Part shown: piece by piece, positions 41,745 through 64,000 of the stretch
Numbering within the stretch: position 1 is the stretch's first letter
Layout: each line of letters starts with the position of its first letter
IMG/VR virus record: IMGVR_UViG_3300050821_018050
Coordinates: 32,001-96,000 of that record
Strand: one strand, 5' to 3'
DNA length: 64,000 bases
From: a virus
The notes under the pieces: model-generated
The model's database searches: none
Seen by the model: the letters and a program-made list of their open reading frames with translations, nothing else
What the model was told of the DNA's origin: nothing
Translations under genes and position numbers: made by a program

Positions 41745-41748
41745 AATA

Positions 41749-41922: not shown

Positions 41923-41928
41923 ATATTA

Positions 41929-42983: not shown

Positions 42984-43178
42984 CTATTCCGCAATTCTTT
43001 CAGCTTCCAGAGAGAACTCATTCATTTCATCTAAGAATTGAGCCATTGGATCAATGGTACATTTAAAATTAGGATTCGTATTATCGACGATAAGATAAAG
43101 CTTACCAGCGCGAGGAGACAATTCAGGAGCGTCATTGCAAACTACCAAAGTATTATTAACGTATTTATGAGTGATCAT
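42984..43178 (-). CDS. Hypothetical protein
   Basis: 64 aa, SD GAGG, own promoter. Confidence 0.65.
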   Translation of the reverse strand: MITHKYVNNTLVVCNDAPELSPRAGKLYLIVDNTNPNFKCTIDPMAQFLDEMNEFSLEAERIAE

Positions 43179-43196
43179 GGGTTACCTCTTAATAAA

Positions 43197-43225
43197 AGAA
43201 TACCATACTAAAATAGGAATGTAAA
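43197..43225 (-). promoter_or_regulatory. sigma70 promoter TTTACA-17-TATTCT
   Basis: -35 at 43220-43225, -10 at 43197-43202, TG extension. Confidence 0.7.
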
Positions 43226-43442
43226 GAAAATTATCGCAGGACCGACATTTTTCTGGCATATGACATTAAACGAATTCTCACTACTATTTCACCCTCTTCT
43301 AAATACGTAGTATAACTGCATAATTTATTTTCTTTCCAATTTAAGCTAGAAGATTTTGCCATTTGATGATAGAAATCTGACGCCACTTCGTCTTCTTCCG
43401 GGCTCCGCTCGATGCGAATATAAATACCGGTATGATCAATCA

Positions 43443-43952
43443 TTATAATAGATTCCAATCTAATTCGGGATTCTTGGGCTTTTTACTCAAAGGTTTAACT
43501 GAAAAGATTACATCACCATTATCTGGAGCCGCGACGATTAACTCATAGTTTGTGTTATGCTGAGCGAATATGTTTTTCAAATCACAGGCACTGATATAAA
43601 ATAGCATTTGCGACATTGGCCCTTCTACATAAATAGGCATAAGATCTGTGCCAAGGGCACCATTAATAGCGTAAACACTGCAATTCCACAATCCCTTAAC
43701 CTTTAGAGGATTGCCATGGCGATCTTCGAAGTCGAACTCGGTACCACCAAATCCATTTTCATTCTTAGCGTTATGGCCATAAATCTGTTTAAACGGATGG
43801 GAATCATGGCTACCGATGTAAATTGTTTCTAATTCATTGATCTTACTTGTTTCATAATGAAACGGCAAAGTTACTTGATCCACTTCTAAGGTGATTTTAG
43901 GTTCGGCCAACTGACCCTCCTGCATGTCGATCTCTATGTTTTTAATTATCAT
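43443..43952 (-). CDS. Hypothetical protein (169 aa)
   Basis: Long ORF in minus-strand cluster. Confidence 0.75.
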   Translation of the reverse strand: MIIKNIEIDMQEGQLAEPKITLEVDQVTLPFHYETSKINELETIYIGSHDSHPFKQIYGHNAKNENGFGGTEFDFEDRHGNPLKVKGLWNCSVYAINGALGTDLMPIYVEGPMSQMLFYISACDLKNIFAQHNTNYELIVAAPDNGDVIFSVKPLSKKPKNPELDWNLL

Positions 43953-44441
43953 TTTTTGCTTTCCAAAGAGATTCTCTTAATACTAATTTTGATCCAATTG
44001 AGAAACGCCAGGGAGCATTCCCTTGCCTAATATAATCGTCGGTCATTATCGAGTCCATAAACTGCATAAAAGAATTTTCATCAAGGTAAAAATGAAACCA
44101 CATTATTTTAACCCTCGAAGATATATTTTTGAGTTATTGGTGTCACCCTCTAAAAACCAGTCAATAGTATTATTTAGATGAGGTACATCCCCAGCACAAC
44201 AATCTTGGAATATGCCATAAAAGGCATTTTCTTCTACGCTAAATACATAAGTTTTCATACTGAAAGAATCTCGATAATCGGTTTTTCATCCAAACCAACT
44301 CTCCATTCGACTTTATAAACAGAAGACTTGCGAGATGTTTCTATAATTCCTTCTCTGATATAGTCTGTCACAGCAAAAGTCCATTTAACCGTAAACTGAT
44401 CTAAAGATACTTCGCCGTATTGCCATTCAACCATTCATTAA

Positions 44442-44792: not shown

Positions 44793-47228
44793 ATGAATCC
44801 CCGGTTTTCACTCTATCATATGGTAATATCAGACACAAATTCAGACCAGTACAAATGGGTGCGCCAGTTTATCAGCGATTTCATCGGTGGTGAGAACGCT
44901 GACGCATTCCTATTGTCATTGGCGGACGAGCACCAAAATCTTTCCAACCTGTCTGTTGCTGTTAACAATTCCTTAACAATTTCAATGTCCGGTGGGGAAT
45001 ACCTCGATCGAGTATTAGCTGGCTATGGCATCACCCGTCCAGCAGACCTTGGTCTATCTGACGATGCCTTCCGCAAGATCGGTATCGCGATCAATGCACA
45101 AAAACAGATCACTGACGTAATTCACACGATCTTAGAGATCTTCTTCGGGGAAGAGTCAGTCCGCGCATACGCTCAGTCTACAGTGGCAGGCCCATATGCA
45201 TTCGAAGATGGCGACGAACTATTCGTCGAACTCGAAAACGGCACAATCTATAACATCCCATTTGACTTGACTAATTTTACCGACCCCAGCCAAGTTTCCG
45301 CGCAGGAAGCTAGCGATGTGATCACTAGGTTTTTCTCAAGCCAAAGCTTAAACGCATATTCCAAGGTTTACACCGATTCATCTACGCAGCTCCAATACGT
45401 TAGAATATTCGGATCAGCCAAGGGGCCATACTCGTTAGTGCAAATCCAGGGTGGTCGCGTGCAATCAGTAATGCAGTTCCCAGACATGCGCCCAACTGAA
45501 TTAGCGGTAAACACTACTGTGTGGCAAGTGACGAGAAACGTATCTTCCACGATCCGATTCAGATGGTATTCAGGTCCTAAGCCAGCGCTCGAATCTTTAT
45601 TCCCAAATGATATAGCTAATATATTTGGTCAACCATTCGTATTAGCAGGTATCGACGGATCATTCCCGATCACGAACGTCAGAGCAGCCGGGGTTTCACC
45701 AGAAGTTGACTCAGGCTATTTCGAAGTATCGATCCCGGAATTAAGCGGCCTAAATTCTATCCAAGTAGACACAATACCTCCACCTAATTCAGGCGGCAAT
45801 ATCTATTCTTTCCTCGTCAACCAAGGTGCCTACGAAGATCTAACCTTCTTCGCACCAAAGAAGAACGTACCTTACGGTCAAAGCCGATTCGCATTAGCAT
45901 TCGAAGCAGTGAGCGGTACCCTACAAATTTACTTACCAGCAACCACCCAAGTCGTAGAACGCGCTTTGACCGGTGGGATGCATATGCACATGAAATATAC
46001 CGAACAAGATCTCGACGGTACTTTCGGTTCAAGTTTAACGAACGATACCAAAAACCAAATTATTATCATCTCTGACATGGCGTTCAAATACCCAGCTTTG
46101 GGTTATGACATGGATTCAACAGGTGGGGAAGTGACTATCAATGCACCAAGCCCTTACACTATTCCAGTCAACTATTGTTTCAGAGAACAAGGCTACACCA
46201 CCGTAGTCTGCGCACAGCCACATGGTCTACCTGACCAATCGTGGAGCCCAAACACAAATTACTCAATCGGAAACATCGCCTACTACCAAGGAGCTACTTA
46301 TCAGGCGCTCCAAGCTACAGGTCCATTAAGTATGGTTGAACCTCCAGCAGACAATCCCGTCTTCTGGCAATTCCAGGAGTATAGCCAAAATTATTCGGAC
46401 TATACTATCACACTCGACGTAGATTTCGTTGAATCAGATGATCCTGCTAACCCATTTCTGGGGAGCTACATCGTAGACCCAGCAGCCGGTTACGCATTAA
46501 CATCTGATATGGTAACGACTAGAGAAGCATTAAGAGCTGGCCAAAGGAAGAGTACATTGTACTGCCAAGGCGAACTCCCAAATGCTGCAGGTATTTTGTT
46601 ATTCGGTTTAAACACTGACCAACAAGAAGGACCAGTCAATTACTTCGGTGCCCAAGTCGCGGGCGCTGCAACAGCTATCCCATTAACTTCAGCTTCCCAA
46701 GTCGGTACTACCATAACGGTGGTCACGACCCAAACCAATGGAGCAATCCCTGGTTCAACTGTAGTTATTGCCGGTACAGGAACACCTATCGACGGTACGT
46801 ATGTGGTTACTAACGTTATCAGTCCAACTGTATATCAATGCACAGCAGGAAGCCCAGGCATTTATTCATCGGTTGGAGTTGGTACGAGCACCACCCAAGT
46901 GAATGGGGTTACATCGACTTTACTGATCGACCCTTCATACTCATTTAAGTATGACCACGCAATCGCAACCGACGTTACGGTACTATCGAGCCAATTCGCT
47001 TATGTACCAGCCCCTGACGGTTCAGATTATTCACCTTATATCACAGGTTCACCAGACGGACGCATTTATTGCCAAAGCCTGATAGACCAGATTGTAGCGT
47101 GCGGCATTAATCTGAATATCACAGTGGTATATCCTGGATCAACGGGTGTAGGTAATGATACGGATGGCACATTGGCAACGTCTGTTCCACAAAACGACAT
47201 TGTTTGGATTTACGGTGGGGACACATAG
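44793..47228 (+). CDS. Baseplate wedge (gpI/gp7-like) protein with carbohydrate-binding-like module
   Basis: GEYLDRV...YGITRP...SDDAFR; WSPNTNYSIGNIAYYQGATYQA (CBM5/12-like). Confidence 0.7.
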   Translation: MNPRFSLYHMVISDTNSDQYKWVRQFISDFIGGENADAFLLSLADEHQNLSNLSVAVNNSLTISMSGGEYLDRVLAGYGITRPADLGLSDDAFRKIGIAINAQKQITDVIHTILEIFFGEESVRAYAQSTVAGPYAFEDGDELFVELENGTIYNIPFDLTNFTDPSQVSAQEASDVITRFFSSQSLNAYSKVYTDSSTQLQYVRIFGSAKGPYSLVQIQGGRVQSVMQFPDMRPTELAVNTTVWQVTRNVSSTIRFRWYSGPKPALESLFPNDIANIFGQPFVLAGIDGSFPITNVRAAGVSPEVDSGYFEVSIPELSGLNSIQVDTIPPPNSGGNIYSFLVNQGAYEDLTFFAPKKNVPYGQSRFALAFEAVSGTLQIYLPATTQVVERALTGGMHMHMKYTEQDLDGTFGSSLTNDTKNQIIIISDMAFKYPALGYDMDSTGGEVTINAPSPYTIPVNYCFREQGYTTVVCAQPHGLPDQSWSPNTNYSIGNIAYYQGATYQALQATGPLSMVEPPADNPVFWQFQEYSQNYSDYTITLDVDFVESDDPANPFLGSYIVDPAAGYALTSDMVTTREALRAGQRKSTLYCQGELPNAAGILLFGLNTDQQEGPVNYFGAQVAGAATAIPLTSASQVGTTITVVTTQTNGAIPGSTVVIAGTGTPIDGTYVVTNVISPTVYQCTAGSPGIYSSVGVGTSTTQVNGVTSTLLIDPSYSFKYDHAIATDVTVLSSQFAYVPAPDGSDYSPYITGSPDGRIYCQSLIDQIVACGINLNITVVYPGSTGVGNDTDGTLATSVPQNDIVWIYGGDT

Positions 47229-47447
47229 ATGACTAGATTTGTATATCTTTCATTATACATGAGAACGATGTACAGCTTATACGATTTGTTAGAAAAGGTT
47301 TATATGTACGACACCACTTCAATGCTTATTACTCAGCGCAACATCACAGGAGTAACTAAGTTCTATGAAGCTTTGCGTTTAATCAACCTCAAAGGCGATC
47401 TAAGAAAGACTATGCCAATGATCGGTCAGACTATGGGGAGTTGCTAG
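47229..47447 (+). CDS. Small hypothetical protein
   Basis: 72-aa ORF filling the gap; start uncertain. Confidence 0.45.
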   Translation: MTRFVYLSLYMRTMYSLYDLLEKVYMYDTTSMLITQRNITGVTKFYEALRLINLKGDLRKTMPMIGQTMGSC

Positions 47448-47473
47448 ATTTACAGCGAATTTAGTGATAAGGT

Positions 47474-48277
47474 ATGAATATGAATAAATCTAAATGGACG
47501 TTAGAAGCATGCAAAGAAGATGCCCTTAAGTATACATCACGATGGGCATGGAATAAAGCTTCTAATAATCGGCCATACAAGACCGCTCGCGTTAATGGAT
47601 GGCTGGATATTTGCTGTGCGCATATGCCTCAAATTAATAAGCCACCAAATTACTGGACCATAAAAGAAAATTGTATTATTGATGCACATAAATTTAACGA
47701 TAGAACAATATGGCAAATTACTTCGCACTCAGCCTATAAAAGCGCATGCGATAACGGCTGGCTGAGTGAATGTACGATGCATATGATAGACAAGATTAAG
47801 CCAAAAGGGACATGGACTTTGCAGACTTGTAAGATCGATGCAAAGATATACAAAACTATTTCTGCATGGCAAGAGGGGTCTCCTTCTGGATATCAAACTG
47901 CGTTTAAAAGAGGATGGCTAGCAGAATGTTCTGAGCACATGACGAAGAGCTGTTTATCTAGGCCGGAACAAAGCCTTAGAGAAGAAATTAAAGCATTATA
48001 TCCTAATGCTGATTCCAAATTTTTCACCCAAAACGGTAAAAGAATGCAATTGGATATTTATATACCGGAACTTAATAAAGGTATTGAATTTAATGGGGAT
48101 TATTGGCATGGCGAAGGAATGATCAGACAAGGAATTAACCCTCATCAATATCATGCAAACAAGAAACAATTTTTCCAGTCAATTAATATTAGTTACATAG
48201 AAATTTGGGAATCCGAATGGAATACCAATAAAGATCTTTGCTTAAGCAAAGCGAAGGAGTTTTTATTCAATCCGTAA
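47474..48277 (+). CDS. Free-standing homing endonuclease-like protein, paralog of 6771..7589
   Basis: Three Cys/His repeats; LDIYIPELNKGIEFNGDYWH. Confidence 0.75.
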   Translation: MNMNKSKWTLEACKEDALKYTSRWAWNKASNNRPYKTARVNGWLDICCAHMPQINKPPNYWTIKENCIIDAHKFNDRTIWQITSHSAYKSACDNGWLSECTMHMIDKIKPKGTWTLQTCKIDAKIYKTISAWQEGSPSGYQTAFKRGWLAECSEHMTKSCLSRPEQSLREEIKALYPNADSKFFTQNGKRMQLDIYIPELNKGIEFNGDYWHGEGMIRQGINPHQYHANKKQFFQSINISYIEIWESEWNTNKDLCLSKAKEFLFNP

Positions 48278-48756
48278 TACGCACAGGTGCCCGATTGCAG
48301 TTAAAGGTGTATGATGGCAATGAAGAACGACTAATAGGTTATTGCACGGCTATTAACTATACAGTAAGTTCCGGCCAGAAATCCATTTATGTGGTCGACA
48401 GTCCATTCCCAGCAGAAATCGCGCAGGGGGCTGGCCCATCGCAGGTACGTGGCTCGATGACCATCTACATGCTTCAGAACACAACGCCTGAGATCTTAGG
48501 CTTAGTTCCATTCCGCACATCAGGCACTGCCGCTTCAGGTGACCTGTCGCCTAGCCCAGGTGACTCAACCAATATGTTCAACATGGCATATTCGAAATCA
48601 ATTTTCTTACGTTTGTATGACCGCAATAGTGGGACTCTATTTACTTCACTCGATTACCTAAAAGTCGGATCATACTCCGTAGCAGTGACTGCCAAAGGGA
48701 TCGTAAAGGCTGATTTAGCTTTTGAGGCTCGTTACGCGACTCCTGGCCAAGGATAA
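48265..48756 (+). CDS. Second tail tube-like protein
   Basis: QSVIRTGARLQL aligns with QSQIFTGARAKL of 14850; start is either TTG 48238 or ATT 48265 after AAGGAG. Confidence 0.65.
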   Translation: MQSVIRTGARLQLKVYDGNEERLIGYCTAINYTVSSGQKSIYVVDSPFPAEIAQGAGPSQVRGSMTIYMLQNTTPEILGLVPFRTSGTAASGDLSPSPGDSTNMFNMAYSKSIFLRLYDRNSGTLFTSLDYLKVGSYSVAVTAKGIVKADLAFEARYATPGQG

Positions 48757-48952
48757 TAGCAAAACAAAGTTCGTTAGTTGAATAACTCATGCCTTGACCA
48801 ATTGAATAAATAAATAGAATTACTGCAGTAATCAAAACTTGACCAACTTCTCCAATACCTTTGGATTCAATAAATTTAAAACTTATGAAATACACTGGTA
48901 ATTGCAATGATAATCCTACAATCCATCTTAAAACTTTTTGGAATTTGCTCAT
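48641..48952 (-). CDS. Small two-TM membrane protein
   Basis: Leaderless ATG 48952; two hydrophobic segments; 3' end overlaps tube paralog on opposite strand. Confidence 0.6.
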   Translation of the reverse strand: MSKFQKVLRWIVGLSLQLPVYFISFKFIESKGIGEVGQVLITAVILFIYSIGQGMSYSTNELCFAIILGQESRNEPQKLNQPLRSLWQSLLRSMIRLLGNRVK

Positions 48953-48958
48953 ACCCTA

Positions 48959-48987
48959 ATCCTATCATCGCCAAGCGTTTTTGTCAA
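48959..48987 (-). promoter_or_regulatory. sigma70 promoter TTGACA-17-TAGGAT (leaderless)
   Basis: -35 at 48982-48987, -10 at 48959-48964. Confidence 0.75.
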
Positions 48988-50152
48988 TAATTCTTTCTTC
49001 GACGGAAAAGCATCAACGTGATGGCCCACTATTCAATAAGTTACGGTACGAAGACTGAGCAGCGTCCTCAACTCGCAAACGACTCCAGTAATGTAATTGA
49101 TAATTGGGATAAATTTCGTCGTCCCATTGCTGTTCCCAATCTATCTCTATGTAATAATTAGTGTAATAAATATTATCCAATGCCGTAATCCTCCACCGTA
49201 AATGTGTAAACGTGCCACGGGCGAATGCCAATGCGCGGATAGCACAAAAGACCTGACCTATCTTGAATCCAGAAGTGTGTTATCATTTGTACCCATTATT
49301 CATTATAACTTGCAGCCAGTTAGTGTTCCAATAAAATTCGCCCACTTGAAATACTTTGAGGTATTCCAAAGATCCGGTGGCCCGCTCTCCACGACGATTG
49401 ATCAAGTCAATTTTAAATGTGTATTTAATCACCATTCTTTACATCGCAATCTACTATAAACTATAACCATATCAACACTACTGTATTCATATACACGCCA
49501 TTGTCGGTTAGCCCATTCATGGCACCACTTACGATATTCACGCAGTTCCTGGTGCGATTGAAATAACAAGAAAAATTCGATCATAAATTATAACTCAAGA
49601 AATAACGGCCATACGTGGACGCGCCCATAGTCCAACTCATTCTATTAGATAACCACACTTTGCGGAAGCTTTCGAACTCGTGCTCACTATCGAATTGCAC
49701 ATAAATTAAGATCATTAATAAATCCTGTTAGCAAATGAAATATACTTAAATGGCACTATGACTATGTGTTTCCCCAAATATTCTTCTGATGCCGCTGAAA
49801 TACTCCAGCCATGATCAGGTAAACTCAATAAAAAATCCGCATCATGGGCTTTATAGTCCATCAAAATATAAATCACAAAACCACCAAAAAGCAATAGCGA
49901 TTTCTAGTAACAAGAAGCATTTTTTCATAAGACTCTAGCGCCGCCAGAACATTTTTAGTGGCAGACCAATAATTTAAGTCACATGGGTGCAGAAAATCTG
50001 AGTCAATGTAATAGCAAGCATATTTGAATTCAGTCATTTGCCGTTTACCACTATGCTATAATGGCTATCGGTCAGGAAAAAGTAATTGATATTGCTGTAG
50101 ATTATATAAAGCAGATCGCTACTGACCATATAACTGTCGACCCTATAATTGT

Positions 50153-50389
50153 TCATTCATCCACCATTACGACGACCGGCTGGTAGCCTACGAAACAAAA
50201 ATGGATTGCTCTTTCAATATCATTTGGCGTGCCGCTAGGGACTTTCGCAATCCAATCCAAATACTCTTTCTTATCGTCAAAAGCCTTTTTACATTCTTCA
50301 AACGTTGAATACATGTTTTCGTCAGCGAGTTTAGCGTGAGACCACCGATCGTCCATGTATACGAATTTCAAGAACGTTTTGGCTTTCAT
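50153..50389 (-). CDS. Hypothetical protein
   Basis: 78 aa, coupled. Confidence 0.65.
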   Translation of the reverse strand: MKAKTFLKFVYMDDRWSHAKLADENMYSTFEECKKAFDDKKEYLDWIAKVPSGTPNDIERAIHFCFVGYQPVVVMVDE

Positions 50390-51286
50390 TTTAAAGCTTC
50401 CGCAACCGCTAAGATGCTCATTATCACTACAAACACAATTACGTGGTTTACCATATTTTTATTCATTTTATTGCTCCAATTCAAATATATACCTGGTTCT
50501 GTGAGAAAATCCACTAAAATCGAAAAATAATTCTATGCGAGAGAAATTCTTCCAGTTCTCGGGTTTCATGTGGACTTTCCAGAAGTCATGGTCCCACGCT
50601 GCATACAAATACATTTCACCGTTAAGAGCTTTCATCGTAAATATCCGCGATATCCATATAATCTTCTTCATTGAAAAAAATATTATATTCTGTCCATGTA
50701 CTTCCATTGTAACTGTTTACGGTAATGGAGCAGCTAATTCGATCTGGCGTGAATTGATGTTCGTTACCCATAAGCTATCTCAATCTGATATCTAATGATT
50801 GGATATTGGAGTAGTCGAGCTGGCACTTCGTAAAGATTATACCTGTGTCGCATCCACGGAGCACTTGTAATAGTGATATATTTAACTTTCATATTGTACC
50901 ACTATTTCAAATTTAAGTCGCCACCCATCTTTTTCCCTCATTTTGTCGAAAAACTCATAGTACCTGCGCGATAGATAAGGACGAGTAAAATAGTCTGACC
51001 AGTAGTTTTCCTTTTGCCTGACATTTTTAAACATTATCGCCCCAACCTAATCGAAACCACCAATTACCCAACCGCTCAAATAAATTAAGTTTGCCAGCAG
51101 TGTAAAATATAAGCACGGCATATCCGCTATAAAATCGGTTGCCGAAAGTAAGTTTCAATTCTATGTGAGCCCACTTGCTGTCGAAACGCTGCAGTGAGCG
51201 TACTTCGTTCCGATCCGCTAGAATGATGATCCGGCAATATTCCTCTCGCTTTGGAGTGTATTGGAAAACTTGTTCTGGTCCGCCCT

Positions 51287-51415
51287 TCATTTGTCCTTCT
51301 TTTGACAGTCATCACACTTTTTGACGCGCTTGCCTTTACGCCAAGCCTTGCCTTGGCTACCTTTAATGTAAGTGACAATTACTTTCTTCCATTCGTATTC
51401 GCATTTGCAATTCAT
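51287..51415 (-). CDS. 42-aa basic zinc-ribbon-like microprotein
   Basis: MNCKCEYEW...KKCDDCQKKDK; ATGA overlaps at both ends. Confidence 0.65.
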   Translation of the reverse strand: MNCKCEYEWKKVIVTYIKGSQGKAWRKGKRVKKCDDCQKKDK

Positions 51416-54243
51416 TTGACTCTCGCCACAGTCATATTGTTTTTATAATCCTCTGTCAGGTTGCTCATACCATCATATTTGCCAAACCACCAAGCTATTT
51501 GTCCAATTTTGTATCGAGTATTCCAGGTTTGCCTGAAAAAGAAATCCCATCCTGATTTATCCATTTTTATGGTAAAATATTTCATTTTGTATCCCATTTA
51601 GTCCATAGGAGTGTGCCAGCACGCCATCGATAGGTATTGTATGCCTCAGAAAATTCATACCTGAATGGCGATGTTCTGCGATCCCAACTAATGGTAAATT
51701 CCCAAGTGATGTTATTCATTTGGCCACCACAAATGTGTACGCATTACTCATTAACCCCTGCACGAATTGAGTATTAACCAAGTCAGCATCATGCATAGAT
51801 TGTTCCAAAGACCAGCGCTGAAGCAATCCTTCGTCAAAGCGAATATAGAGACAGTAAAAGAAATTATTTAGGTTGCTATCTATCATACTTCCACCATAAA
51901 TGCGATTCTAACCTCAACAGATCGGGATAATTGCCTATAATCTACTTCGTCGGCAGTATGCCATGACCAAGGTGAATAGTCTATTATTTTATTGTAAAGA
52001 TCATTAAAATGGATATAATAAAGTTTAATCATGATCGTCCTTATCAAGTATATCACCAAATTGCAACATGTACAAGCCCGTTTTCATATTTCTACGGATC
52101 CCCCATGGAGTGCCATTCATAACTTCAAGAAGCTCCCTCAATTCTCTTAGGTGGGTTGGGCATGACCACTCGCCGCCTTCGGGGATGTCTAAATGAATGA
52201 CTATCATAGTTTCCAGAGCCCCAGGGCCACGCGAGAAGCTAGTGAGTGTGACCACCTCTTTTCTTTCGACCATAAACCCAATTGGAACATGCCTCTACCA
52301 TCTGCTATCAATAAGAATTGGTATCGCACGATCATGCGGACCACCATGTAAGGAATATTTCATTCCCATGCCCTAAATGATAATCCCAATGCATAAAATA
52401 ATCTTTAGTTTCAACATCATACACTTTAAGTCCTGCCCGATAAAGTGTGGGTGTGTCATATGCGAGATAAAGTATAATTCTGATCGGTTCACGTTTCATA
52501 AATTTGTAAATAAACTACGTTGGCCGCATTTACCAGCCGTTGAGAAGTGTAATTCCATTTCTTCTCGAAGTCCCATGCATTCTTACCTTCGAAGAACCAT
52601 TCAACGTAATGAGCTTCTTCATCATCCTTGCATGCGATTTTAAATATGAAATTAATCATTTTGCCCGTGCCCAATCTCTGATCAAAGCGGCTGATCGCAC
52701 GCATTTATTATTTAGCGCTTCCTGGGTGGTAACCATGCCTATTACTCCCGTATCTCCCTGAATACTATAAGTTAATGTAATGATCCAGTAATAACACATT
52801 TATTGCATCCCCAATGCTATCCAGCCTAATGTGAAGGCATACCATTGAAAACCTAAATCTTCTCGCTTCGCCATATTGTGATAACGATACTCTGTTTGCA
52901 GGCCATTGTCCAGCAGACAAACGAAGATATATTTAATCACCATACATACCGCCACCGATGTATTTTTTGCTCATTGGTCGGTCGACACAAATGATGAATT
53001 TAATAGTGAATGGAAGCGGTGGGGGTGAATTCCAAATGATAAAATTATAAGCACCTTGGCCTATTTGGTAGTTCTTTTTATAGTTGTGTAGTGCTGAATC
53101 TCCGGCCACATTCCACCCCTTTCTATTTTATATTTAGAATATCCCAATGCATATATTCTAAACATTTGGTACCAGACTCCCAGACCGACTCCCTGGCGCA
53201 TCTCGAATGTAAATTTCATGTATATTTAACAGCCTCTCGGATCAACCAGCCAACAGCACCCCAGATGCAGAACGGAATGAATCTTTCAAAGAAAAACTTA
53301 GTCCACTTAGATTGTATCACTTTTTCGAAGGTTGTCAATGGTGGGGGATTGAATTCGTAATATTGCTTGTAGGGGGAATGCTCGTATACATATATGACAG
53401 CTAATGGTATTTGTCTGCCCTCCCAAGGAGTGTCTCTAAATTCAGGGCTCACCCACCAACCGTATTTCACAAGACTTGCTCTCCCATTTTTATCATAAAT
53501 CTGTCCTTACTTAACCTGAAATTAGACCCGCTCCCTGTCCAGAAATGACCTTTAGCATCCAAAACGCCCTTAAGCGCAAATAACCTCGCTGAATCGAATG
53601 CATAATAAGCCCAAATCTCTTCTTTTTCGTTTTCAAAGTCTAATTCAAAGTTCCAAATTATTATACTACGGGGCGCATTCATTTAGTCCTCTTGATATCC
53701 AAGCCAAGCGCCCGTAAAGATGAAGTCGAATGGCTCCATGCATTATCTAGGATGAGATAATCCAGGCCAAAGGGGCCATAATTTTTGTGCATTAAAGTGA
53801 ATTTGTATCGAAAAATTGTCATTTAACAAATATCTCCCATTTGGGATAGGTCAGAGATCCGATACCTATAGGCTCAATACGGTGTATAGAAATTAATCCG
53901 AACCTCATACTAGGCCACACGACGTGATTGTAATTATTGGGCCAATGGCTTTTAATCACAGTAATTCCTTATTAATTTAGATAGCCAAATAGGAACCAAA
54001 AAACAAACAGTGCTTCCACCTGTGCCAGGCTTAGCGACAAAATATTGAAAATGAGTAGGACTTGAGCACCAGGTTTTCATTTTCTGGGCATTTCCTTTTT
54101 AATAGTTACAATTGCTTCGCCTTCTTCATCTTCCATAATACTGCCATCGTAACTGATCCCATTGGTAGGTAGCCCAAGGCTTGGCCTATTACCGCTCTCA
54201 AAATCTTCCGGCGTTATTTTGCTTATTAAAATTATGAAAGTCT

Positions 54244-54450
54244 TCATTTTCTAAACATTTCCTTAAACCAACGCCAGTGAGCCGCTTTGAATAATTCGGG
54301 ATGAAACATGTCGGAGCCCGAAGGGGGGAAACTTAGGGGGTTACTTTTAATCAATGAATCTACATGAGATTTATATTTGTCCCACCAATCATTAGCCTTT
54401 TGCTTGATTTCTTGCTGCTCGGAGAATTCTAAGTCTGACCATTGTTTCAT
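54244..54450 (-). CDS. Hypothetical protein, first gene of a leaderless transcript
   Basis: 68 aa; ATG 6 nt after the -10. Confidence 0.7.
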   Translation of the reverse strand: MKQWSDLEFSEQQEIKQKANDWWDKYKSHVDSLIKSNPLSFPPSGSDMFHPELFKAAHWRWFKEMFRK

Positions 54451-54456
54451 AAGTTA

Positions 54457-54485
54457 ATCATATCATACACTACGATCGTTGTCAA
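54457..54485 (-). promoter_or_regulatory. sigma70 promoter TTGACA-17-TATGAT (leaderless)
   Basis: -35 at 54480-54485, -10 at 54457-54462, TG extension. Confidence 0.8.
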
Positions 54486-54488
54486 GAT

Positions 54489-54650
54489 TTAAGTGTGCTT
54501 TTCAATTCTTATCTGGTAATTGCCAATATAAATGAACATCTTAGGGCGAGCCCATACGTATCCATCAAGCGCTTCTAAAGTGGAGGGCGTAAAGTTCCAA
54601 TCCCTTTCTCTCTCAGTGAATCCCCACAAGAATTTATATTTGCACTTCAT
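54489..54650 (-). CDS. 53-aa array microprotein (MKCKYKFLWG...WNFTP...WARPKMFIYIG...)
   Basis: Hand-translated; shares motifs with 62338..62529. Confidence 0.65.
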   Translation of the reverse strand: MKCKYKFLWGFTERERDWNFTPSTLEALDGYVWARPKMFIYIGNYQIRIEKHT

Positions 54651-55504
54651 TTATACCTAACGATCGACAGCAGCCCAAATGGCAGCCTAGTGACATTTTT
54701 ACCATCGTCATCCAAGTACCAGGCAGCTTTCCTCGGCCCTAATGTACCACCATCCCACCGTTCGAGTCTCCTGATCATTGGGATGTCTTTTTTGCTATTA
54801 AATAAGATTAATATAGTAATTCTCATCGTTTAATGCCCATCCAATGTCTGAGTATGACTGACATGACCCAAGAGTATTTCCCCGATAAACGCCTACTTAA
54901 ATGGATTGTGGCGTTGCGTGGTACGCTATATCTATTAACGAATGCGAGCTTGAAAGTGTATTCATTATCTGACATATTTCCCCAGCAATGTCGAGACATA
55001 TGGCCCACTGACCCGCCATTCGTACTCTTTAAATGTATGGGAATACGAATAAGTGGCTGATGAATAGTTGCCATCGGAATCAGTGGCAACGAAATAAATA
55101 GTGTAATCCGGGTATTGTTTCATTTGATGCGGAACCTTCGCATTGTGCCTTTTGTGCTCATGGCGATTAAATCCCAAGCGTGAAAGGCATTAACCCACCT
55201 ACCTTTAGGAAATAAAAAGTCTTCTTCAGGAGTAAGATATACCTCGAATGCGAATGATTTAGTCATTTTTTATTCTTGGGAAGATTAGAAGTTTTTTGAA
55301 TAAATTTTGAATTATCGGCAGCTTTTTGTTTTTTAGCTATTAATTCATCAATACAATCTAGGCATGTTCCAGGCCCTTTGTACGTTACTTTGTCGCACTT
55401 ATCACAGCGAGATCTTTTTTCAAAAAACATCATATTTTATCCTCGGCAAAACCAACATTTACATGCATGATCGTGATCATAATCTTCGGAGACTTGTTTA
55501 CCCA

Positions 55505-55948
55505 TTAAAATCCCGCTTTCTTGAGATCACCGATAAGTTTTTTGATGGCGTTCTTAAAACGAACTCCCTTACCTTTGTATTCAGGCATTTCGCGGTTAAA
55601 CCTGTCGCTGCCACTCAATCTGTACAAGTCATCATGGATGCCGAGATACTCAAAAGCGGTATCGCATTCACCCATGCGAAATAAATCAATGGCTCTTAAG
55701 GCATAATGATTGTGATCACCAAAAACTTCTGGGTGTACAGTTTTTGTCTTGGGAGTTTTCAGGGTGCGAGCCATAACGGCTCCTGCCAGACAGACCGAGC
55801 AAGTGTCAGAGCTACTGTAAGATGCCTGATGGTAGTCCCACATATCAATCCTATAATCTTTCTTGAGTTTCTCAACCTTTTGAAGGTCTTTAAGAGCGAT
55901 TGTTAATAATTTAGACGGTTTATACGGAAGTTTTACTTTTTTAGCCAT
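55505..55948 (-). CDS. Hypothetical protein (147 aa)
   Basis: Longest ORF inside the array; CSVCLAGAVM motif. Confidence 0.75.
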   Translation of the reverse strand: MAKKVKLPYKPSKLLTIALKDLQKVEKLKKDYRIDMWDYHQASYSSSDTCSVCLAGAVMARTLKTPKTKTVHPEVFGDHNHYALRAIDLFRMGECDTAFEYLGIHDDLYRLSGSDRFNREMPEYKGKGVRFKNAIKKLIGDLKKAGF

Positions 55949-58900
55949 ACCAATATTCTACTTCAATCTACGTATTTTGTCAAGGATTTTCTGTACCCAA
56001 TTTTGTGTTGCAGCCTGCCAGTCGGCTTCCCAATCGGTGACCGCGTATTCGACTTCATATTTAGGTGGATTGTTTGGGTGAGTTATATTACCAATAGAAT
56101 TGGCGTACCAGCCACCCCCGGCTCCAGTCCCGACCCATTTAAACCATTTTCCGCGCTCCCAATATCGAGCCTGTCGTTCATCCCATACATCAACCTCAAG
56201 ATAAACTATAGCGTAGTACTTCATTTGTTGTTGCTTTCTAAAAACGCTTGGTAAATAGTGTACTTGACCATTACTTTTATAAGGTGACTGGGTGATGTTG
56301 TTAAATATGGCACACTAAGCCAATCTTTTACGAACCACCGGCTAAGTAAAGGAATCATGAATCTTTCCTCATTGCGAGTACACTCTATAGAGATTCTAAT
56401 TATTTCGACGTTCATAGTTCTATGTACCAATCTGGTCCTTCGAATTCATCGCTATAGTAACGTATAGCATATACACGATCTTTATTGTCGGCGTAATAAC
56501 ATGCTCGTAGTTTAAATGGATAGATCATTGTTTCACCATGAAAATAAAACTTACATCCCAAGATTGAAGATTTTTAAAATGCATTTCCGCAACAGGAAAC
56601 TGTCCTTTATCGGTCGGCACCTCTGATAATGTTGTGTACATCTTTATCCTATTCCTCATATGGCTATTATGAATGAAATACAGCACTATCATACATTTTT
56701 CCCCATCAGGAAATATACTTCGGTTGAGAAATCATTCGATTGCACAGCGATTACTTCTACAATGGTAGCACTACTAAATGTCGTATTGAAAGTAAATTCG
56801 TCCATGGGATGGAAAAATTTACCGGAGCGGTATTGGCAGACCCATTCATAATTCATGAAATGATGCTCCTGGTGAACGCGGAACATTTACCCATTTAAAA
56901 ATTATACGACGGTTTAAGTTCGGTAACATGCCAGCGAACTGCCAATAGGAATGATAAATTCCTAGCTTAAATGGCCAATTGCAATTGTAGTAAGGCGATC
57001 CTTCGGCTTCGATACAGATTCTAACGTATTTCACGACAGGTGCTCCCAATAGGTTTGATAATGGAGGGTAATTATTCCAGCTAAATGGTCAGCTTGTACC
57101 CCACAAAATAGATCTGAAGATTGTTTATTAAAAAACTCAGAGCCTTCTTCGTCAGAAACACTAATATCCAAATAATATTTAATCATCATCGAGCCTGCTC
57201 CCAACTAAAAAAGCAATGAAGGGTGCTCACGCCAGATCCTACCCTACTCGAAACAGCTAAACTCATCCAACGGCTCCTCTTAAGAAAAAACATGTTAATT
57301 GTTTTTCTGTCATATTCAGCTTCAATCATATATCGTTTTTCAATCACAGTTTTACTCGATCCCAATGAAAAAAGTATTCTATCAGTCTGATATCCTGCCA
57401 AGAATTGCCCTTACCTTTACATTTCATCCATTGGCTTTCCTTATGGAAAAATTGTATGACTTCTGGCCGATTTACTCCCACATGAATTTCGTAACGCCTC
57501 ACACAAGTCATCGGATGCCCCAAATATATTCGAATCCCATACTGCACGTGTGATGGTAATTTAGTCCGCTTTGTGGATATGGTGTATGAAAACGAATATC
57601 ACCAGCAATACGAGAAGAATTCCATTCCCGTCGCTTGACGGTGATGATAAACATCGCATCTTTCATAATAAGCCCAATCTTTTCTTCGCAGCTTGCCCAA
57701 TGTGCCAATCGTAGTTCCTTCTCCCGATCCGTACACGGCAATCCAGCCAGGTTGTTCCCCAAGCGTCTTGGTAGGCTACTTCGAATTGCCATACTAATTT
57801 TTTACCCATAAATTACCCTACCCCTAAAAAGTTCCAAAGTCTACTCGGAGCCATAAATTTGTGTTTGGATGCACGAGTGTGCCATTGGAGCCTCATCCAT
57901 GGTTCATTCCAAATCCCGTACATATCTTCCGTGATGGGATTAAATTCAAACGTCCAACAAAGATCTTTATCTTTTTCAATATTAATTGCGATCATCAATA
58001 TGATGCCCCCAAATAATCAGCCATCATATGGCTCATGGTCCAACCCCAGTCTTGTTCAATTGTGCCATATTGGTTGCCCATATGGATCCAACCTCTGTAT
58101 TTATGTTCTGGCAACAGAATATGAAATTCAAATAGCGTGAGCTTCATTATTTATTCCCTATAATACGCAGAAAATTAGTGGAAGTATACATTCGATATGC
58201 ATAACCGATCGGGATATAATTGCTGAAGTAAGAAAGGTGGCCAACAAAGTCTCGGTGAATGTATTCTCCACCGACTACGAAATCAAATTGAATGGAATTA
58301 ACCATAAGACCCCATTATATGGGAGGCGTAGCCTGTGTGTGCAACTCGGTACTGGCGCTTAAAGAGTGGGTGTGGGTACACGATAAATGTAATTTCACCA
58401 TGAGCAAGGTAGTTATGCTTCAAAACTCCTGATATAGTGATGGTGATTGAGTCGAAAAAGTTCATTTTGTAGCCTGCCATAATCTAGTAAATGATCTGCT
58501 AGTGAAACGTTGATATTTTTTACCAAACACAGCAGGATGCCATGCAAAAGTAAGTGTTGTTCTCACCCAATGGCGCTCACTGATATTGCCTTCGAATGTA
58601 AAAGTATATGTTTGACGTTTCATCTCTTGCGTTTCCCTGACCACGCTTTTCGGATTAGACGACTCATATTGTCTGGGTGTATCGGATAAAACATGATGTG
58701 AGGATCTTTTTGGTGAGCCTTAAACGCATCGCCCACATGCCAAAACAATGACAAGGCCATGCGATTAATGGCAGGCCAGTCTTCCGTTTTAACGCACACT
58801 TCTATGGCGATAGACTCAATTTGCATGATACTCCAGACAGAACGTACTTTTTTGCCAATCTATATAAACTCCCCATGGATCATTACGCCACCCCAAATCT

Positions 58901-58958
58901 GGTAACCACTCCAGATCATTCGTACCACGAATGTAATTTAGGGTGATTTTGATGATCA

Positions 58959-59201
58959 TTATTTAATTTTAAAAGTAGATTTATGGAGTTTTGCTAGTGA
59001 CTTTTCAAGGCTCGCAATTTTATTGGCTTTCATTTTGTTGTAGATCGCTTCAGCCTCTTCTAAACTTTGAGTCCATTGGCCTTTATGGTAATAGCTATAT
59101 GGTCCAACTTTGATCATGTTATCGAAACCTGGCCCGCAATGCTCAGCATTAGTCGAGTAAATACCTTTTGTAAGAGCAAATTTCAGAATATAAACTTTCA
59201 T
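58959..59201 (-). CDS. Hypothetical protein, first gene of a leaderless transcript
   Basis: 80 aa; ATG 6 nt after the -10. Confidence 0.75.
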   Translation of the reverse strand: MKVYILKFALTKGIYSTNAEHCGPGFDNMIKVGPYSYYHKGQWTQSLEEAEAIYNKMKANKIASLEKSLAKLHKSTFKIK

Positions 59202-59207
59202 ATATAA

Positions 59208-59236
59208 ACTTTACCATACTAATTCGATTAAGTCAA
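59208..59236 (-). promoter_or_regulatory. sigma70 promoter TTGACT-17-TAAAGT (leaderless)
   Basis: -35 at 59231-59236, -10 at 59208-59213, TG extension. Confidence 0.75.
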
Positions 59237-60503
59237 TATTTAATATCTGTAAGTTAAAACAAAGTGATATGGACTAATTACAATGGGGATCGACCATTTG
59301 CTGCGGGCCTGATGAGCCACGCTCCAGAAGTCGCCGTAGTTTTTTAATTTTTCTACGGCTATCTCAATCTTAATCATGAGTAGAATATTCCCAATAACTG
59401 TCCATAAAATTCCAATAAAGAGTCCATCGACCATAAGATTGTGAGATAGCCGTCATTGATACGTTTTGGGTCCAATACGGGAATGCTCGGACTTGTATGG
59501 TGAATTTCATACGGTATAATAAGTCCAAATTCTAGCCACTGTGTCCCATCGGCTAATGAAGTTGGGGCTCACTTTGTGACCATCAGGCATAATCTCTGCC
59601 ATAGTTATCTTGCTAGAATGATGGTGAGTAACAAATATTTTAAAAATGGAATTTCGCAATTACGGCCTCATCCCCAGCTACAAAATGATAGCCATTATAA
59701 TCCATCCATTTGCATAACACGGGTTTATCATCGATTACTATGTCACTAAACCATTCCCAATCTTTTCGGTCAACGATTACATAAATGATGCCGTGACTCA
59801 ATACTTCGCCCATTTTTTATAGTCCTTTACATCGATCTGATAAATGTTCCCACGCTTGGTCGTATACCAGCCTTTGTAAACATGGCGGTACCGTCTTTTG
59901 GTTTCAGGTTTAGTGCGCTCATGGCGACCAAACATGTTAAATTCTTTTGGGGTTGCATAAACTTTGATTACGAATGTCATGTGAGGTAAAATTCCCAGTT
60001 TTCACTTTCGTGATTGTATTTGATTTCCCAATATTTGGCTAGAAAATTGGGTGAAAATACCAAAAGTTTCCCCTGCAAAGATGGTTCCCACGATATTGAC
60101 TTCATAGTAATAAGTATTTCTATTTTCATCCTCTAAACACAATCCCTAAATGCCGCGCTGCATCGCCGCTAAAATACCATCCAGAATAGGTCCCGTGGTA
60201 TTTTGGGTAAAGTCGACCAAAACCCCAACCAACAGTACCCCATTCAACCTTAAAATCCCAAACCGTCAAATAATCTTTCACTTAAACCTCATCTCGATGA
60301 TAATTTTAGTGTATCCGTGATTGCCCCACAGTTGATAACCTACAATTGGTATTTTCAAGGCTTTGCAGCGTTGAAGCGTGACGCTATCTGCCCTTCGATA
60401 GTAATCATCGCGGTGGCCCCTGAATTCCCATTCGTATGGCTTAGATTTGAGGATGACCATTTTGATCCTCATATATGGCCAAAATATATATTCCACTTCG
60501 ATA

Positions 60504-60533
60504 CTTTACGATTCTGGTCTTTACGATTCTGGT
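60504..60533. repeat. Perfect 15-bp tandem duplication CTTTACGATTCTGGT x2
   Basis: Read directly; encodes TRIVK twice on the minus strand. Confidence 0.9.
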
Positions 60534-61797
60534 ATAGTAAAGGAACGGAAAACATGCGGAGATCTCATTATAAAATTCAAATGACCAGGTTTTCATAATT
60601 TATCTCGGGTATAAGCGTCTATCGTATAAACAATGGAGGAATCATGCATAAATTCATTCTTAGTAATGGTTATACTATAAAAGTAATCCCTTACCCATTC
60701 CCTGCACCAATAATTACCGTGATCAACTCCTCTCGCCATCGGAATACCTTACTGCATCACTGGTGATGCTCATAATATACATACCAAAATAATAAATAGC
60801 AACCCGGTTATGTGGACGAACAATGCCAGGGAATTCCGGCCCTAAACAATCATTAAATTCAATTAGGTAATTATATCTGGCATACCTCCTACATTTCATT
60901 CGCTCACCTCAAACCACCAATGCGCCCCAACATTAAAATCGGGCAATGACGGATAAGTATGAAAAACAATACTGATCACGCCTTCGTCAAATGGTTCGCA
61001 AACAAAACCCAATTTATCATAGAAAGTGTATTCTCCGACAGTTCCATTAAATCTCATATACTGGATCCCTTTTTAACTCTATCACAAAAAAGTATTCTGG
61101 TAAACGACCAAACTTAACGTGCAGAAACATCTCAAGATATTTATCATTGCTGAATGTACAGGCTTCAATATCGTCACCATCGAAAAATGCTATAGTCGTA
61201 GTGTACTTATTCACTTTGGCATTCTCCCTAAGAATTGCCATATTTCGATAGATGCAAAGCCCCAAGCCCATCCCTCGCGACATTGATCTACTTCTATACT
61301 TCCAGATCCAAATGGTTCAAAATATATCCTGATTTTGTATTTCATTGGCCAATCTCTATTTCGTAGCAAGGATCCTTCCAATTATCTTTACTGGTTTTAA
61401 TGTAAATCTTACTTGTTAAACTGAGCATGTCTAGGTTCCACAGAGTATAATAGCCTGCTAGCCAAGGATAGGTGTACAGCCATTTGGTCATATTACCTCG
61501 AAATCAAAATGCATCCAATTGTCGTTTTGCCATACCCTATATTCGACGATTCTTTTGTTCATTATGGTTTTATAAAGGAATGCGCGGTCGCTTTTAACGT
61601 GATCGAATGCCATTTCATTTTCAAACCTGACTAGCCACTGATAGATCATTGCTTCACCTTAATTTGGCAATACCCACCATAATAAGTATACTTAAACGTT
61701 CCATCGTATTCGTGAAAAGTGTGCATAAATGCCGGTCTATCGCAGCGATAAAAATTAACACTACCAGCTGGTTTAAATGACCACCCATGGAATCTCA

Positions 61798-61941
61798 TTA
61801 GAATGACTTCCATTCGATGGTAATATAACGCCATCGATTGAAATATGGGTAAAATCTTACTTCAATAGTGTTCATAAACGGGTCAGCCCAAATGTATTTT
61901 TTGCTCATTGGCCCGTTACTCCAAAGATTCCGACTATCCAT
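61798..61941 (-). CDS. 47-aa array microprotein (MDSRNLWSNGPMSKKYIW...)
   Basis: Hand-translated; GAGG SD; overlaps both neighbours. Confidence 0.6.
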   Translation of the reverse strand: MDSRNLWSNGPMSKKYIWADPFMNTIEVRFYPYFNRWRYITIEWKSF

Positions 61942-62098
61942 TTCTTACCTCGATTATATAATATCCGTTCCAAGGATTACTTGTTTTGTCAAACTTGATC
62001 TGATATTCGTACATTTTAGGCCAGCGGACCTGACCTCCCCAAACAAGATCTCCAAAATAACCACTAGACATTCTAAAAATTCTGTAGATTCTTTTCAT
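61934..62098 (-). CDS. 54-aa array microprotein (MKRIYRIFRM...YYIIEVRNG)
   Basis: Hand-translated; ATGA overlap. Confidence 0.6.
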   Translation of the reverse strand: MKRIYRIFRMSSGYFGDLVWGGQVRWPKMYEYQIKFDKTSNPWNGYYIIEVRNG

Positions 62099-62337
62099 TT
62101 TAACTCAATTTTAAAAGACATCGGATATGGATTATCTTGGTTCCACATAAAATATGACCAATCTCCACTTTTATACCAAAAATATTTTTCTTTTACCAAT
62201 CCCATACTTCCCATACTGTTCTGAAAATCGGATTCGGTCTTACGCGGTACGAAGTACACCTAGCCCTATATTCGTAACATTTTTTAAAACTGTAGGTTTG
62301 TGACGGCTTTCCCTCGTCAAATTCAATAGAAAATTTC

Positions 62338-62529
62338 TTAAAAATCATTGATACCAATCCAACCTACCGAACTTATTTCAAATGTTATCCATGTATCCCA
62401 ATGACCCACATATAAAGAGTACTCTGCTCGCGCCCATGTGTCAAAGTGTTTTTCATCAAGGGTGTATCTACCTAGCTGGGGCTTTGGCGTAAATTCCCAA
62501 AGATAATAGGAATATCTCATGTGGGTCAT
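62338..62529 (-). CDS. 63-aa array microprotein
   Basis: ORF track; GGAG SD; ATGA overlap. Confidence 0.65.
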   Translation of the reverse strand: MTHMRYSYYLWEFTPKPQLGRYTLDEKHFDTWARAEYSLYVGHWDTWITFEISSVGWIGINDF

Positions 62530-62674
62530 GTTGGCTCCATGTCAAAGCTCCAGAGTTTTTCGGAAGCTTTCCCGATAACTATTATATGGTATATGTTAGC
62601 AAAATCATCAAAATGCGTCGAAGAAACAAAATAAGTTCTAGGATCGTAAGGGAACTTCATCCAAGTGGCGTACC

Positions 62675-62815
62675 TCATAATTCCCTTTCAAGTGTTAAGA
62701 TAATATAATTTTTCAAATAACTTTCTAGTGATGATTTCCAATACCGATCAACCCAAGCTCTGTTCAGGAAATCATAGTCTTCTTTATTGGTGCAAATAAT
62801 ATCAATTCTGATCAT
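62675..62815 (-). CDS. 46-aa array microprotein (MIRIDIICTNKEDYDF...)
   Basis: Hand-translated; overlaps both neighbours. Confidence 0.6.
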   Translation of the reverse strand: MIRIDIICTNKEDYDFLNRAWVDRYWKSSLESYLKNYIILTLEREL

Positions 62816-62950
62816 GAAATGCCTTTTTTAGCCGTACCATTATGCCATCTGTGTGTCCGTATTCTAAAGTTCTGTCCCACTCCATTACAGTCAATGCGGT
62901 TAAGAAAACTGTGTGATTGATGCCAAAAGGTAAAAATACGATCATTGTTA

Positions 62951-63097
62951 TTATTTTGTCCATATCGTCACGTCGTACCCCAGTCCCCAAGAATTGGCTC
63001 CGCTCCATTTGTGATTTCCGATAACATTATTCACCATGAAAAAATCATCTGCGCCGTCTGAAGACAAGATTAACTGTATTTCAAACCAATGCCTCAT
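62951..63097 (-). CDS. 48-aa array microprotein (MRHWFEIQLIL...TIWTK)
   Basis: Hand-translated; ATGA overlap. Confidence 0.6.
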   Translation of the reverse strand: MRHWFEIQLILSSDGADDFFMVNNVIGNHKWSGANSWGLGYDVTIWTK

Positions 63098-63659
63098 TTG
63101 CGCTTTGTCCATATGATGACCTCGCTCTCATCACTCCACCTGCGAGTCCCGGCCCATAGGTCATCTTTCCCGTACATAAGAATGTCCATGAAATCTCTAC
63201 CGACAGGCGGAATGCCAATTTGGATGATTATGGTAAAGCGCAAATCTTTCAGCATTTCATCACCCATGAGTCTCCAATAGCAACCAATAAAATCCAGTAT
63301 ACATGAACCATTTCGAGCTGCGAGCATTTTTGCCATGCCACTCTCGCCCATCATGTCCATAATCTATATAAATTTGGTATCGACGTTTGAATTTATCCAC
63401 GATACCCCGCAATGTGATCTTGTGGATAAAGAAAAATCGTAGCCGTTACATGAGAGAATTCCCATATGTACGTAGCATTTATGCACCGACTCGACAGTCC
63501 CATTTCATCGTCGTCAAGCTCTATTATTATCATAAACCATAAAAATATACATTTCTGGATGGTCAACCGTAGTACTCCACCTGGAATATATGGGAGGGAG
63601 ATCCAGTATCAGTTCAAACATGCTTTCATCTAGCGTAACATCAAATTTGTAATAAGTCA

Positions 63660-63785
63660 TTAGCGATACCATTCCAATACTAAATAATCTTTAGTGCCAC
63701 ATGCGTGCCATCGCTCAGACTCTAAAACGGCCTCAACAAATGGATCGTCACTTCTCTTAAGAATGACGAAGATTTCAATTTTCAT
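63660..63785 (-). CDS. 41-aa array microprotein (MKIEIFVILK...LEWYR)
   Basis: Hand-translated; ATGA and TAATG overlaps. Confidence 0.6.
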   Translation of the reverse strand: MKIEIFVILKRSDDPFVEAVLESERWHACGTKDYLVLEWYR

Positions 63786-63952
63786 TCACCCACCTTACCA
63801 TAATAATTGCTATGACTTATATGCGGGTAAAATGCGAAATGATCTGGGCGACCGTGGATGCTCCACAGATCGCTATTAAACTGGTCCAGTATGAAATGGA
63901 GTTCATCTCGATCTTTCCACATCACAATGATAACGATTTTAGAAACGTTCAC
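63782..63952 (-). CDS. 56-aa array microprotein (MNVSKIVIIV...)
   Basis: Hand-translated; GTG start with AGGAG SD. Confidence 0.6.
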   Translation of the reverse strand: MNVSKIVIIVMWKDRDELHFILDQFNSDLWSIHGRPDHFAFYPHISHSNYYGKVGE

Positions 63953-64000
63953 CAACTCTCCTAACGTGGAAAAGCAGCCAGTGTAAAGTTTGATTTGGTT

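Follow-up and report, generated by a model that had tools for sequence, protein, structure and literature searches.

A minus-strand array of coupled, aromatic-rich microprotein genes in an uncultured phage related to Myxococcus phage Mx1

The variable accessory-gene regions of T4-like myophages have been termed hyperplastic regions (PMC2147016). In Bacillus phage G, a lineage-specific expansion of zinc ribbons amounts to about 35 copies (Iyer et al. 2021, PMC7824862), and the T4 proteins Ip1-3 each block one GmrSD variant (PMC12373910). Here we describe an array of short, coupled genes for aromatic-rich microproteins on the minus strand of a 64,000-nucleotide stretch of viral DNA (the window), which corresponds to bases 32001-96000 of the 159,805-bp phage genome IMGVR_UViG_3300050821_018050 (39% GC, 99% complete). 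Positions below are window positions, counted on past 64000 for features beyond the window. The array is real and apparently undescribed; it fits hyperplastic early regions as loosely defined, but stands apart from them in its scale, composition and paralogy and in the uniform size of its genes. Literature searches yielded no description of such an array, in agreement with the initial annotation of this DNA, which knew of no matching system.

Ninety-two open reading frames (ORFs) tile positions 49013-64000 of the minus strand, covering 98.2% of the bases. The median length is 52 amino acids, and 82 of the 92 fall within the 35-70 amino acids given by the initial annotation for coupled minus-strand ORFs. 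One call of 88 amino acids consists of two ORFs (63260-63400 and 63094-63255), raising the total to 93. With this split, the 16 consecutive ORFs counted earlier in 61646-63952 were recovered, and the extrapolation made from them, 90-100 genes in more than 15 kb, agrees with the total; the block itself extends further, to 69877. This block (block B) spans 48641-69877 on the minus strand with 127 ORFs in 21.2 kb, the part 48641..64000 lying in the window. Two other minus-strand blocks are block A (40679-44434, 20 ORFs), located between a baseplate-J-like gene and an 811-amino acid structural gene, and block C (75576-86748, 61 ORFs), outside the window. Together the three blocks hold about 208 microprotein genes in 36 kb, or 23% of the genome.

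Of the 91 junctions in the tiled region, 51 have a spacing of -4 (ATGA), 6 a spacing of -1 and about 24 a spacing of -8 to -20. Strand bias and coupling were compared with shuffled sequence. A count made independently of the tiling gave 40 ATGA couplings on the minus strand and 1 on the plus strand, against 0.8+-0.9 (maximum 5) in 200 dinucleotide shuffles, and the same tiler applied to shuffled DNA returned 70 ORFs, 59% coverage and 5 ATGA junctions; a tiling artefact is ruled out by these controls. A G-rich Shine-Dalgarno (SD) peak is located at -13 to -8, within the tail of the preceding gene, where it had been noticed before. The anti-SD duplex at array starts reaches -4.6 kcal/mol, compared with -2.3 for random positions and -5.2 for core genes. 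Synonymous codon usage correlates with that of the core genes at r=0.87 in the called frame and at 0.47 and 0.62 in the shifted frames, with a weaker codon bias in the array than in the core. Since the layout is identical in independent ENA and Logan assemblies, the array is no assembly artefact. The reading frame shifts at 87 of 92 junctions, and an alternative genetic code or stop read-through was rejected because only 5 junctions are in frame and because the core genes use all three stops.

The products are aromatic-rich, as the initial annotation had stated. Tryptophan (W) makes up 4.3% of the array proteins, compared with 1.05% of core proteins; the bases would predict 1.55%. Adding tyrosine (Y), phenylalanine (F) and histidine (H) brings the share to 21%, whereas core genes have 10% and base composition predicts 13.5%. 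Cysteine (1.4%, random expectation 3.3%) and leucine (6.7%, random expectation 10.5%) are reduced. Outgroup relatives were covered by sampled regions, most of them in part; relative to their small proteins the enrichment is 3.3x for W, 1.8x for Y, 1.7x for F and 2.1x for H, and at least 15% aromatic residues are found in 102 of 110 small block-B proteins and in 5 of 34 outgroup proteins. The small-gene regions of these relatives have a median length of 70-99 amino acids and 9-13% W+Y+F+H, so the enrichment is not general to small phage genes. Neither stop-codon repair nor overlap with the SD is likely to account by itself for the surplus of Trp, because Trp is even along the length of the proteins and Gln and Leu are not raised.

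Alternating hydrophobic strands were noted earlier at both ends of the proteins, and this was confirmed. With the junction residues held fixed in the shuffles, 74% of in-window proteins have such a strand close to the N end (32% shuffled) and 42% have one close to the C end (29% shuffled). The signal remains after excluding junction residues, and no enrichment was seen among outgroup small proteins. The basic start reported along with the strands is in part a product of the ATGA overlap, which largely dictates residue 2 by allowing only K, I, N, T, R, M or S there. Apart from Met, the N-termini of the array proteins have no conserved column.

Overall pairwise scores within the block are slightly above those of shuffles, which fits the very low pairwise identity and hyperdiversity ascribed to the members at first reading. 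Clear paralogue pairs and trios exist nevertheless. Neighbouring genes are more similar than in permuted order (excess 5.5 vs 2.1, p=0.0004), which points to tandem duplication. Three adjacent paralogues of 55, 53 and 52 amino acids at 57031..57511 (minus strand) are 21-25% identical with saturated synonymous sites; the pair 53679-53822 and 52204-52335 (within 52204..53822, minus strand) shows 40% identity over 43 aligned residues; and the neighbours 63094-63255 and 62951-63097 share 30% identity over their full length. The stretch 62675..63952 (minus strand) is a paralogue run of the strand-helix-strand-strand (EHEE) type. In paralogue pairs, the proportion of synonymous differences (pS 0.7-1.1) exceeds that of nonsynonymous differences (pN 0.34-0.56), and since synonymous sites are saturated the duplications must be old. 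The sequence relationships thus support expansion of the array by tandem duplication.

These results bear on the reading that the array is an extreme but ordinary hyperplastic early region, made up of loosely related or unrelated small accessory genes of mixed functions that are packed by coupling and have no unifying mechanism. Relatives too have long same-strand early regions of small hypothetical genes (about 40 kb in Mx1), -4 overlaps are the commonest prokaryotic spacing (PMC12548453), and besides the barely elevated pairwise scores several array members are ordinary: helical, membrane or CxxC proteins, and one with a PHROG match. However, the corresponding regions of the relatives have longer, far less aromatic proteins without the terminal-strand signal, 91 of the 92 in-window proteins are without a strong family match (the exception being the single strong PHROG match), neighbours are paralogous, and the array of a sister phage is a demonstrable family. 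We consider this explanation unlikely.

Searches of the array against Pfam, NCBIfam, PDB sequences, Rfam and, by blastn, phage sequences gave nothing significant. When profiles were run against 5.8 and 1.8 billion proteins, the query families matched none but their own members, and the ESM Atlas gave only hypothetical clusters below 0.9; short queries are insensitive, so these failed searches are no proof that homologues are absent.

The initial annotation had called the array rapidly diversifying. Recent hypermutation is not supported, given the saturated synonymous sites and the lack of a reverse transcriptase, an integrase or a template repeat. The reverse transcriptase profile PF00078 had no match in the 99%-complete genome while control profiles matched, and the sole ORF with a YADD motif encodes a VTC-domain protein. 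A genome self-BLAST revealed no repeats among the microprotein genes, and so no template and variable pair with adenine-specific differences, and there are no long repeats in 40000-64000; a 27-nucleotide near-repeat between two genes outside the window (score 40, null maximum 33-37) is too weak to use. A diversity-generating retroelement is thereby ruled out. An integron-like or recombinase-shuffled cassette array is ruled out as well, because the tyrosine recombinase profile PF00589 is absent from the genome and the overlapping genes leave no spacers for att repeats. For a comparison of nonsynonymous and synonymous rates between close strains, no divergent strain was found, the array proteins being singletons at 90%.

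The present phage is an Mx1-like myophage, its nearest cultured relative being Myxococcus phage Mx1 (capsid 52%, tail tube 42% identity). A closer sister phage (IMG/VR 3300035181, G001) has a colinear genome of 160.6 kb, a capsid 83% identical and core proteins mostly 40-85% identical. It carries about 80 small genes of like kind (W 3.2-3.3%, aromatic residues 18-20%), mostly at two insertion sites shared with the present phage. In the sister phage the array proteins demonstrably belong to one family, marked by a Tyr-Arg-Ile start strand and by a strand at the terminus, and 26-32% of held-out members were recovered above the 99th decoy percentile. Comparison of the syntenic arrays by direct alignment gave almost no orthologues, and a weak positional pattern is shared (excess 0.97+-0.09, against -0.11+-0.13 for an outgroup). 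In a third phage (ENA ERZ27248008, L007), paralogues rich in His, Tyr, Phe and Arg occupy the block-A site (L007:2769-5335); they have no start strand and represent a different, probably helical scaffold. The three phages form a clade with 100/100 support. In the sampled regions, distant relatives and Mx1 have ordinary small genes and no aromatic arrays. The outgroup phage G002 has a younger tandem family of about 70-amino acid helical proteins with an MKRSE start and a WEPE end (C1:62197-71309; one pair 74% identical), and a lone MKRSE gene is found in the present phage near genome position 128876. By eye, a release-factor-like and a cold-shock-like protein were noticed in the early region of the sister phage (G001:C1:56312 and 58609).

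The three near-complete relatives all measure 157-161 kb, with or without arrays. This would suit a near-neutral stuffer, in which the DNA fills the capsid, the coupled short frames let ribosomes shield the messenger RNA (mRNA) and the peptides matter little, as would the weaker codon bias and the lack of orthologues between sister phages. Such a role is very improbable in view of the protein-like shift in composition (W and the reduced C and L), the terminal strands that persist without junction residues, the confident predicted fold of one member, and the 21-50% amino-acid identity retained among paralogues whose third positions are saturated, a figure biased by alignment on the protein.

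Fold prediction covered one member in the window and one in the sister phage, and two models do not represent 200 proteins. The 46-residue product of 62675-62815, a member of the EHEE-type run, was modelled by AlphaFold2 with an alignment of 13 neighbours as input, giving strand-helix-strand-strand (E2-8 H11-21 E27-33 E37-44) in five agreeing models with a predicted local distance difference test (pLDDT) score of 83.5-87. The best whole-chain matches are the designed EHEE miniproteins 5vli_C (Z 6.5, root-mean-square deviation (rmsd) 1.2, 39 aligned) and 5jg9_A (Z 5.9), followed by half-ferredoxin-like fragments. The model supports a compact folded scaffold for one subfamily. For the sister-phage family member, strand-strand-helix-strand was predicted (pLDDT 71), with weak whole-chain matches to p56, T4 Dmd and T7 Gp2 (Z 3.5-3.8, rmsd 2.5-2.9, 43-45 aligned). 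Speculatively, the two strand orders could be related by circular permutation, a change that tandem arrays can bring about. Homodimer prediction for the 62675-62815 product gave an uninformative score of 0.02, the chain's own fold being uncertain in the same program.

Foldseek gave no match with E <0.001; KH and RRM domains are among its weak matches (E 0.55-0.8). Taken with the enrichment of aromatic residues, Arg and His, which suits base stacking, these matches would fit miniproteins that bind nucleic acid or small nucleotides rather than proteins, such as RNA-binding half-domains or sponges for immune signals, and dodecin-like beta-alpha-beta-beta oligomers bind flavin via Trp. We nevertheless hold this to be quite improbable: the proteins scatter around a near-neutral net charge (10th-90th percentile -4 to +5), no conserved pocket residues were found across paralogues except a loosely aligned Trp, and signal molecules are too few for 200 variants. 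Two functional classes were rejected as classes: DNA mimics, as the array proteins are not acidic, and membrane peptides, as a hydrophobic segment occurs in 16 of 208. CxxC is present in 8 of 208 array proteins.

Among the consensus sigma-70 sites of the genome, 15 of 38 have an ORF-opening ATG 5-8 nucleotides after the -10 box against a background of 2.8%, and in 11 of these 15 the distance is exactly 6 nucleotides; the corresponding numbers are 12 of 38 consensus promoters in the sister phage and 1 of 12 in the outgroup G002. Five sigma-70-type promoters lie on the minus strand in the window part of block B. At 59208..59236, the ATG of an 80-amino acid ORF (58959-59201, PHROG 22725) follows the -10 box by 6 nucleotides, and this predicted leaderless gene heads a 20-gene chain. 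The promoters at 55955..55983 (11/12 matches) and 54457..54485 (11/12, extended -10) are predicted to give leaderless starts of a 147-amino acid ORF (55505-55948) and a 68-amino acid ORF (54244-54450), respectively. A promoter within a gene at 53311..53338 (11/12, 16-nucleotide spacer) may drive the final 28-gene chain from 52943 to 48641, and one at 48959..48987 would give a leaderless start of the last ORF (103 amino acids). Chain-head genes encode longer, more ordinary proteins, with up to 20-28 coupled microgenes behind them; coupling works best at gene spacings from -4 to +3 (PMC12548453). The host-type promoters suggest early expression of the array, and judged from sequence we infer early transcription by host polymerase, leaderless initiation and relay translation along each chain.

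This phage seems to use leaderless mRNAs genome-wide, with promoters also at 9849, 34101, 41957, 44470, 67749, 69912, 78076, 107629 and others. Promoters and coding tails overlap in the sister phage, where the final codons of a microprotein gene (Val-Asp or Leu-Thr/Leu-Asp) often contain the -35 box (G001:C1 14410, 18657, 19723, 20482, 32686, 33931 and 58165).

The virion genes are on the plus strand, with the minus-strand array inserted among them. This arrangement, the predicted early expression from host promoters and the fit of the junction SD signals to re-initiation argue against the notion that the coupled products assemble into a heteromeric complex, such as mixed sheets or a surface or decoy structure, or that frameshifting at ATGA joins them into longer chains. 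The frame change at 87 of the 92 junctions and terminal strands that in several members are hydrophobic on both faces would agree with it, but wholesale turnover between sister phages makes a fixed assembly hard to reconcile, and we give the notion very little credence.

With a probability of roughly 0.5, we read the array as an old birth-and-death repertoire of non-catalytic early binding miniproteins, putatively directed against variable host proteins. If the promoters and chains are used as their anatomy suggests, the block would work as early operons in which host sigma-70 RNA polymerase initiates at internal promoters, the first gene being translated leaderless and the next 3 to 28 genes by stop-start coupling, assisted by the SD in the previous tail. 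Most products would, by extension from the two models, be three-stranded alpha/beta minidomains of 40-60 residues, one per protein, in which the terminal strands are fixed and an aromatic-rich middle varies; W and Y are enriched in binding interfaces. As comparison of the arrays shows, old tandem duplications were followed by divergence or replacement until sisters share architecture and not genes. Each miniprotein might then bind a host protein or complex, for example strain-specific defence or expression machinery, and the array as a whole might serve as a broad repertoire for counter-defence or host takeover.

Several points weigh against this interpretation. Both terminal strands are present in only 29% of in-window proteins (8% shuffled), and overlapping start, stop and SD impose part of the terminal pattern. 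A split-half profile of block B placed 3 of 55 and 2 of 55 held-out members above the 99th decoy percentile; as it misses most of them, block B consists of several diverged subfamilies and not of one provable family, and the one or two scaffolds proposed by the initial annotation are supported by subsets only, the case being much stronger in the sister phage. The in-window and sister-phage models differ in topology, with no match in a profile-profile comparison, and their modest Z-scores, typical of common arrangements, show shape and not function. The paralogue pairs show no sign of positive selection (pS above pN, synonymous sites saturated), and about 200 distinct inhibitors far outnumber the defence systems of one host strain.

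More tentatively, the clade as a whole may keep a library of miniprotein binders: 80-200 early genes, expressed from leaderless chain-coupled mRNAs and renewed by tandem birth and death, would encode a few alpha/beta scaffolds of 45-55 residues with aromatic, interface-like surfaces, and each product would neutralise a host target of its own. This stronger form is possible, though doubtful. If the proteins are indeed binders, the counter-defence candidates in this one genome would outnumber those known from any model phage, and their scaffolds would be ones at which protein designers arrived independently; the array would be a ready pooled library for discovering new host defences and a test case for the origin and turnover of orphan small genes. 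Even without a function the array calls for caution in annotation: more than half of its ORFs were missing from the calls of one database, so similar arrays may be overlooked and may hide in other uncultured phages.

The array is flanked by conserved structural genes of 811 and 172 amino acids with a 267-amino acid endonuclease-like gene between them (44793..48756, plus strand); the structural genes were used as synteny anchors. The endonuclease-like gene (47474-48277) is near one edge of block B. At the far edge there is a GIY-YIG endonuclease gene (69968-70699), not present at the same site in the sister phage. Homing endonucleases could have helped block B insert. A gene for an Rrf2-family regulator lies within block C (76830-77165, minus strand) and has a homologue in G002. 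Immediately before block C, a stable hairpin RNA (z -4.6; 86760-86870, minus strand) carries an anti-SD-like run at the stem-loop boundary; it has no Rfam match and no copy in the sister phage or G002. The head region encodes a VTC-domain protein (7586-9292) and an 845-amino acid protein with a 2H phosphoesterase domain (4247-6784), and a CYTH-domain protein is encoded at 15840-16382; the VTC and CYTH proteins are both triphosphate-tunnel enzymes. A single 95-nucleotide tRNA-like gene (22760-22854) is Ala(TGC) according to ARAGORN and has no Rfam match at the gathering score.

Among known systems, diversity-generating retroelements likewise provide a phage-borne repertoire of variable, presumably binding proteins, but act on one target gene where many genes are found here. 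The designed EHEE binders place many variable sequences on a 40-50-residue scaffold; they are synthetic and the analogy is one of shape only. The natural inhibitors p56 (anti-Ung), T4 Dmd (antitoxin) and T7 Gp2 (anti-RNA polymerase) match the sister-phage model in size and, by the weak whole-chain matches, in its predicted three-strand one-helix build; the in-window model has another strand order. All three are single-copy genes without sequence similarity to the array proteins, and p56 is an acidic DNA mimic while the array proteins are not acidic as a class. The T-even Ip1-3 proteins offer a functional model, being small, mutually dissimilar hotspot proteins each acting against one defence variant. 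They share an N-terminal packaging signal, are injected and number three per genome, whereas the array proteins have no shared leader, and their functional likeness to the Ip set is putative. In the zinc ribbons of phage G a small domain is likewise amplified within a single phage lineage, but the present array lacks a Cys motif, has five to six times more genes on several scaffolds, and its paralogues are barely detectable. Hyperplastic early regions resemble the array in placing variable small hypothetical genes, unshared by relatives, on the early strand between conserved core modules. The Mx1 region has a median of 89 amino acids, 34% overlap and 12.6% aromatic residues (PMC10720576). In contrast to such regions, the array described here is uniform (median 52 amino acids), 87% overlapping, twice as aromatic and locally paralogous, and it comprises about 200 genes.

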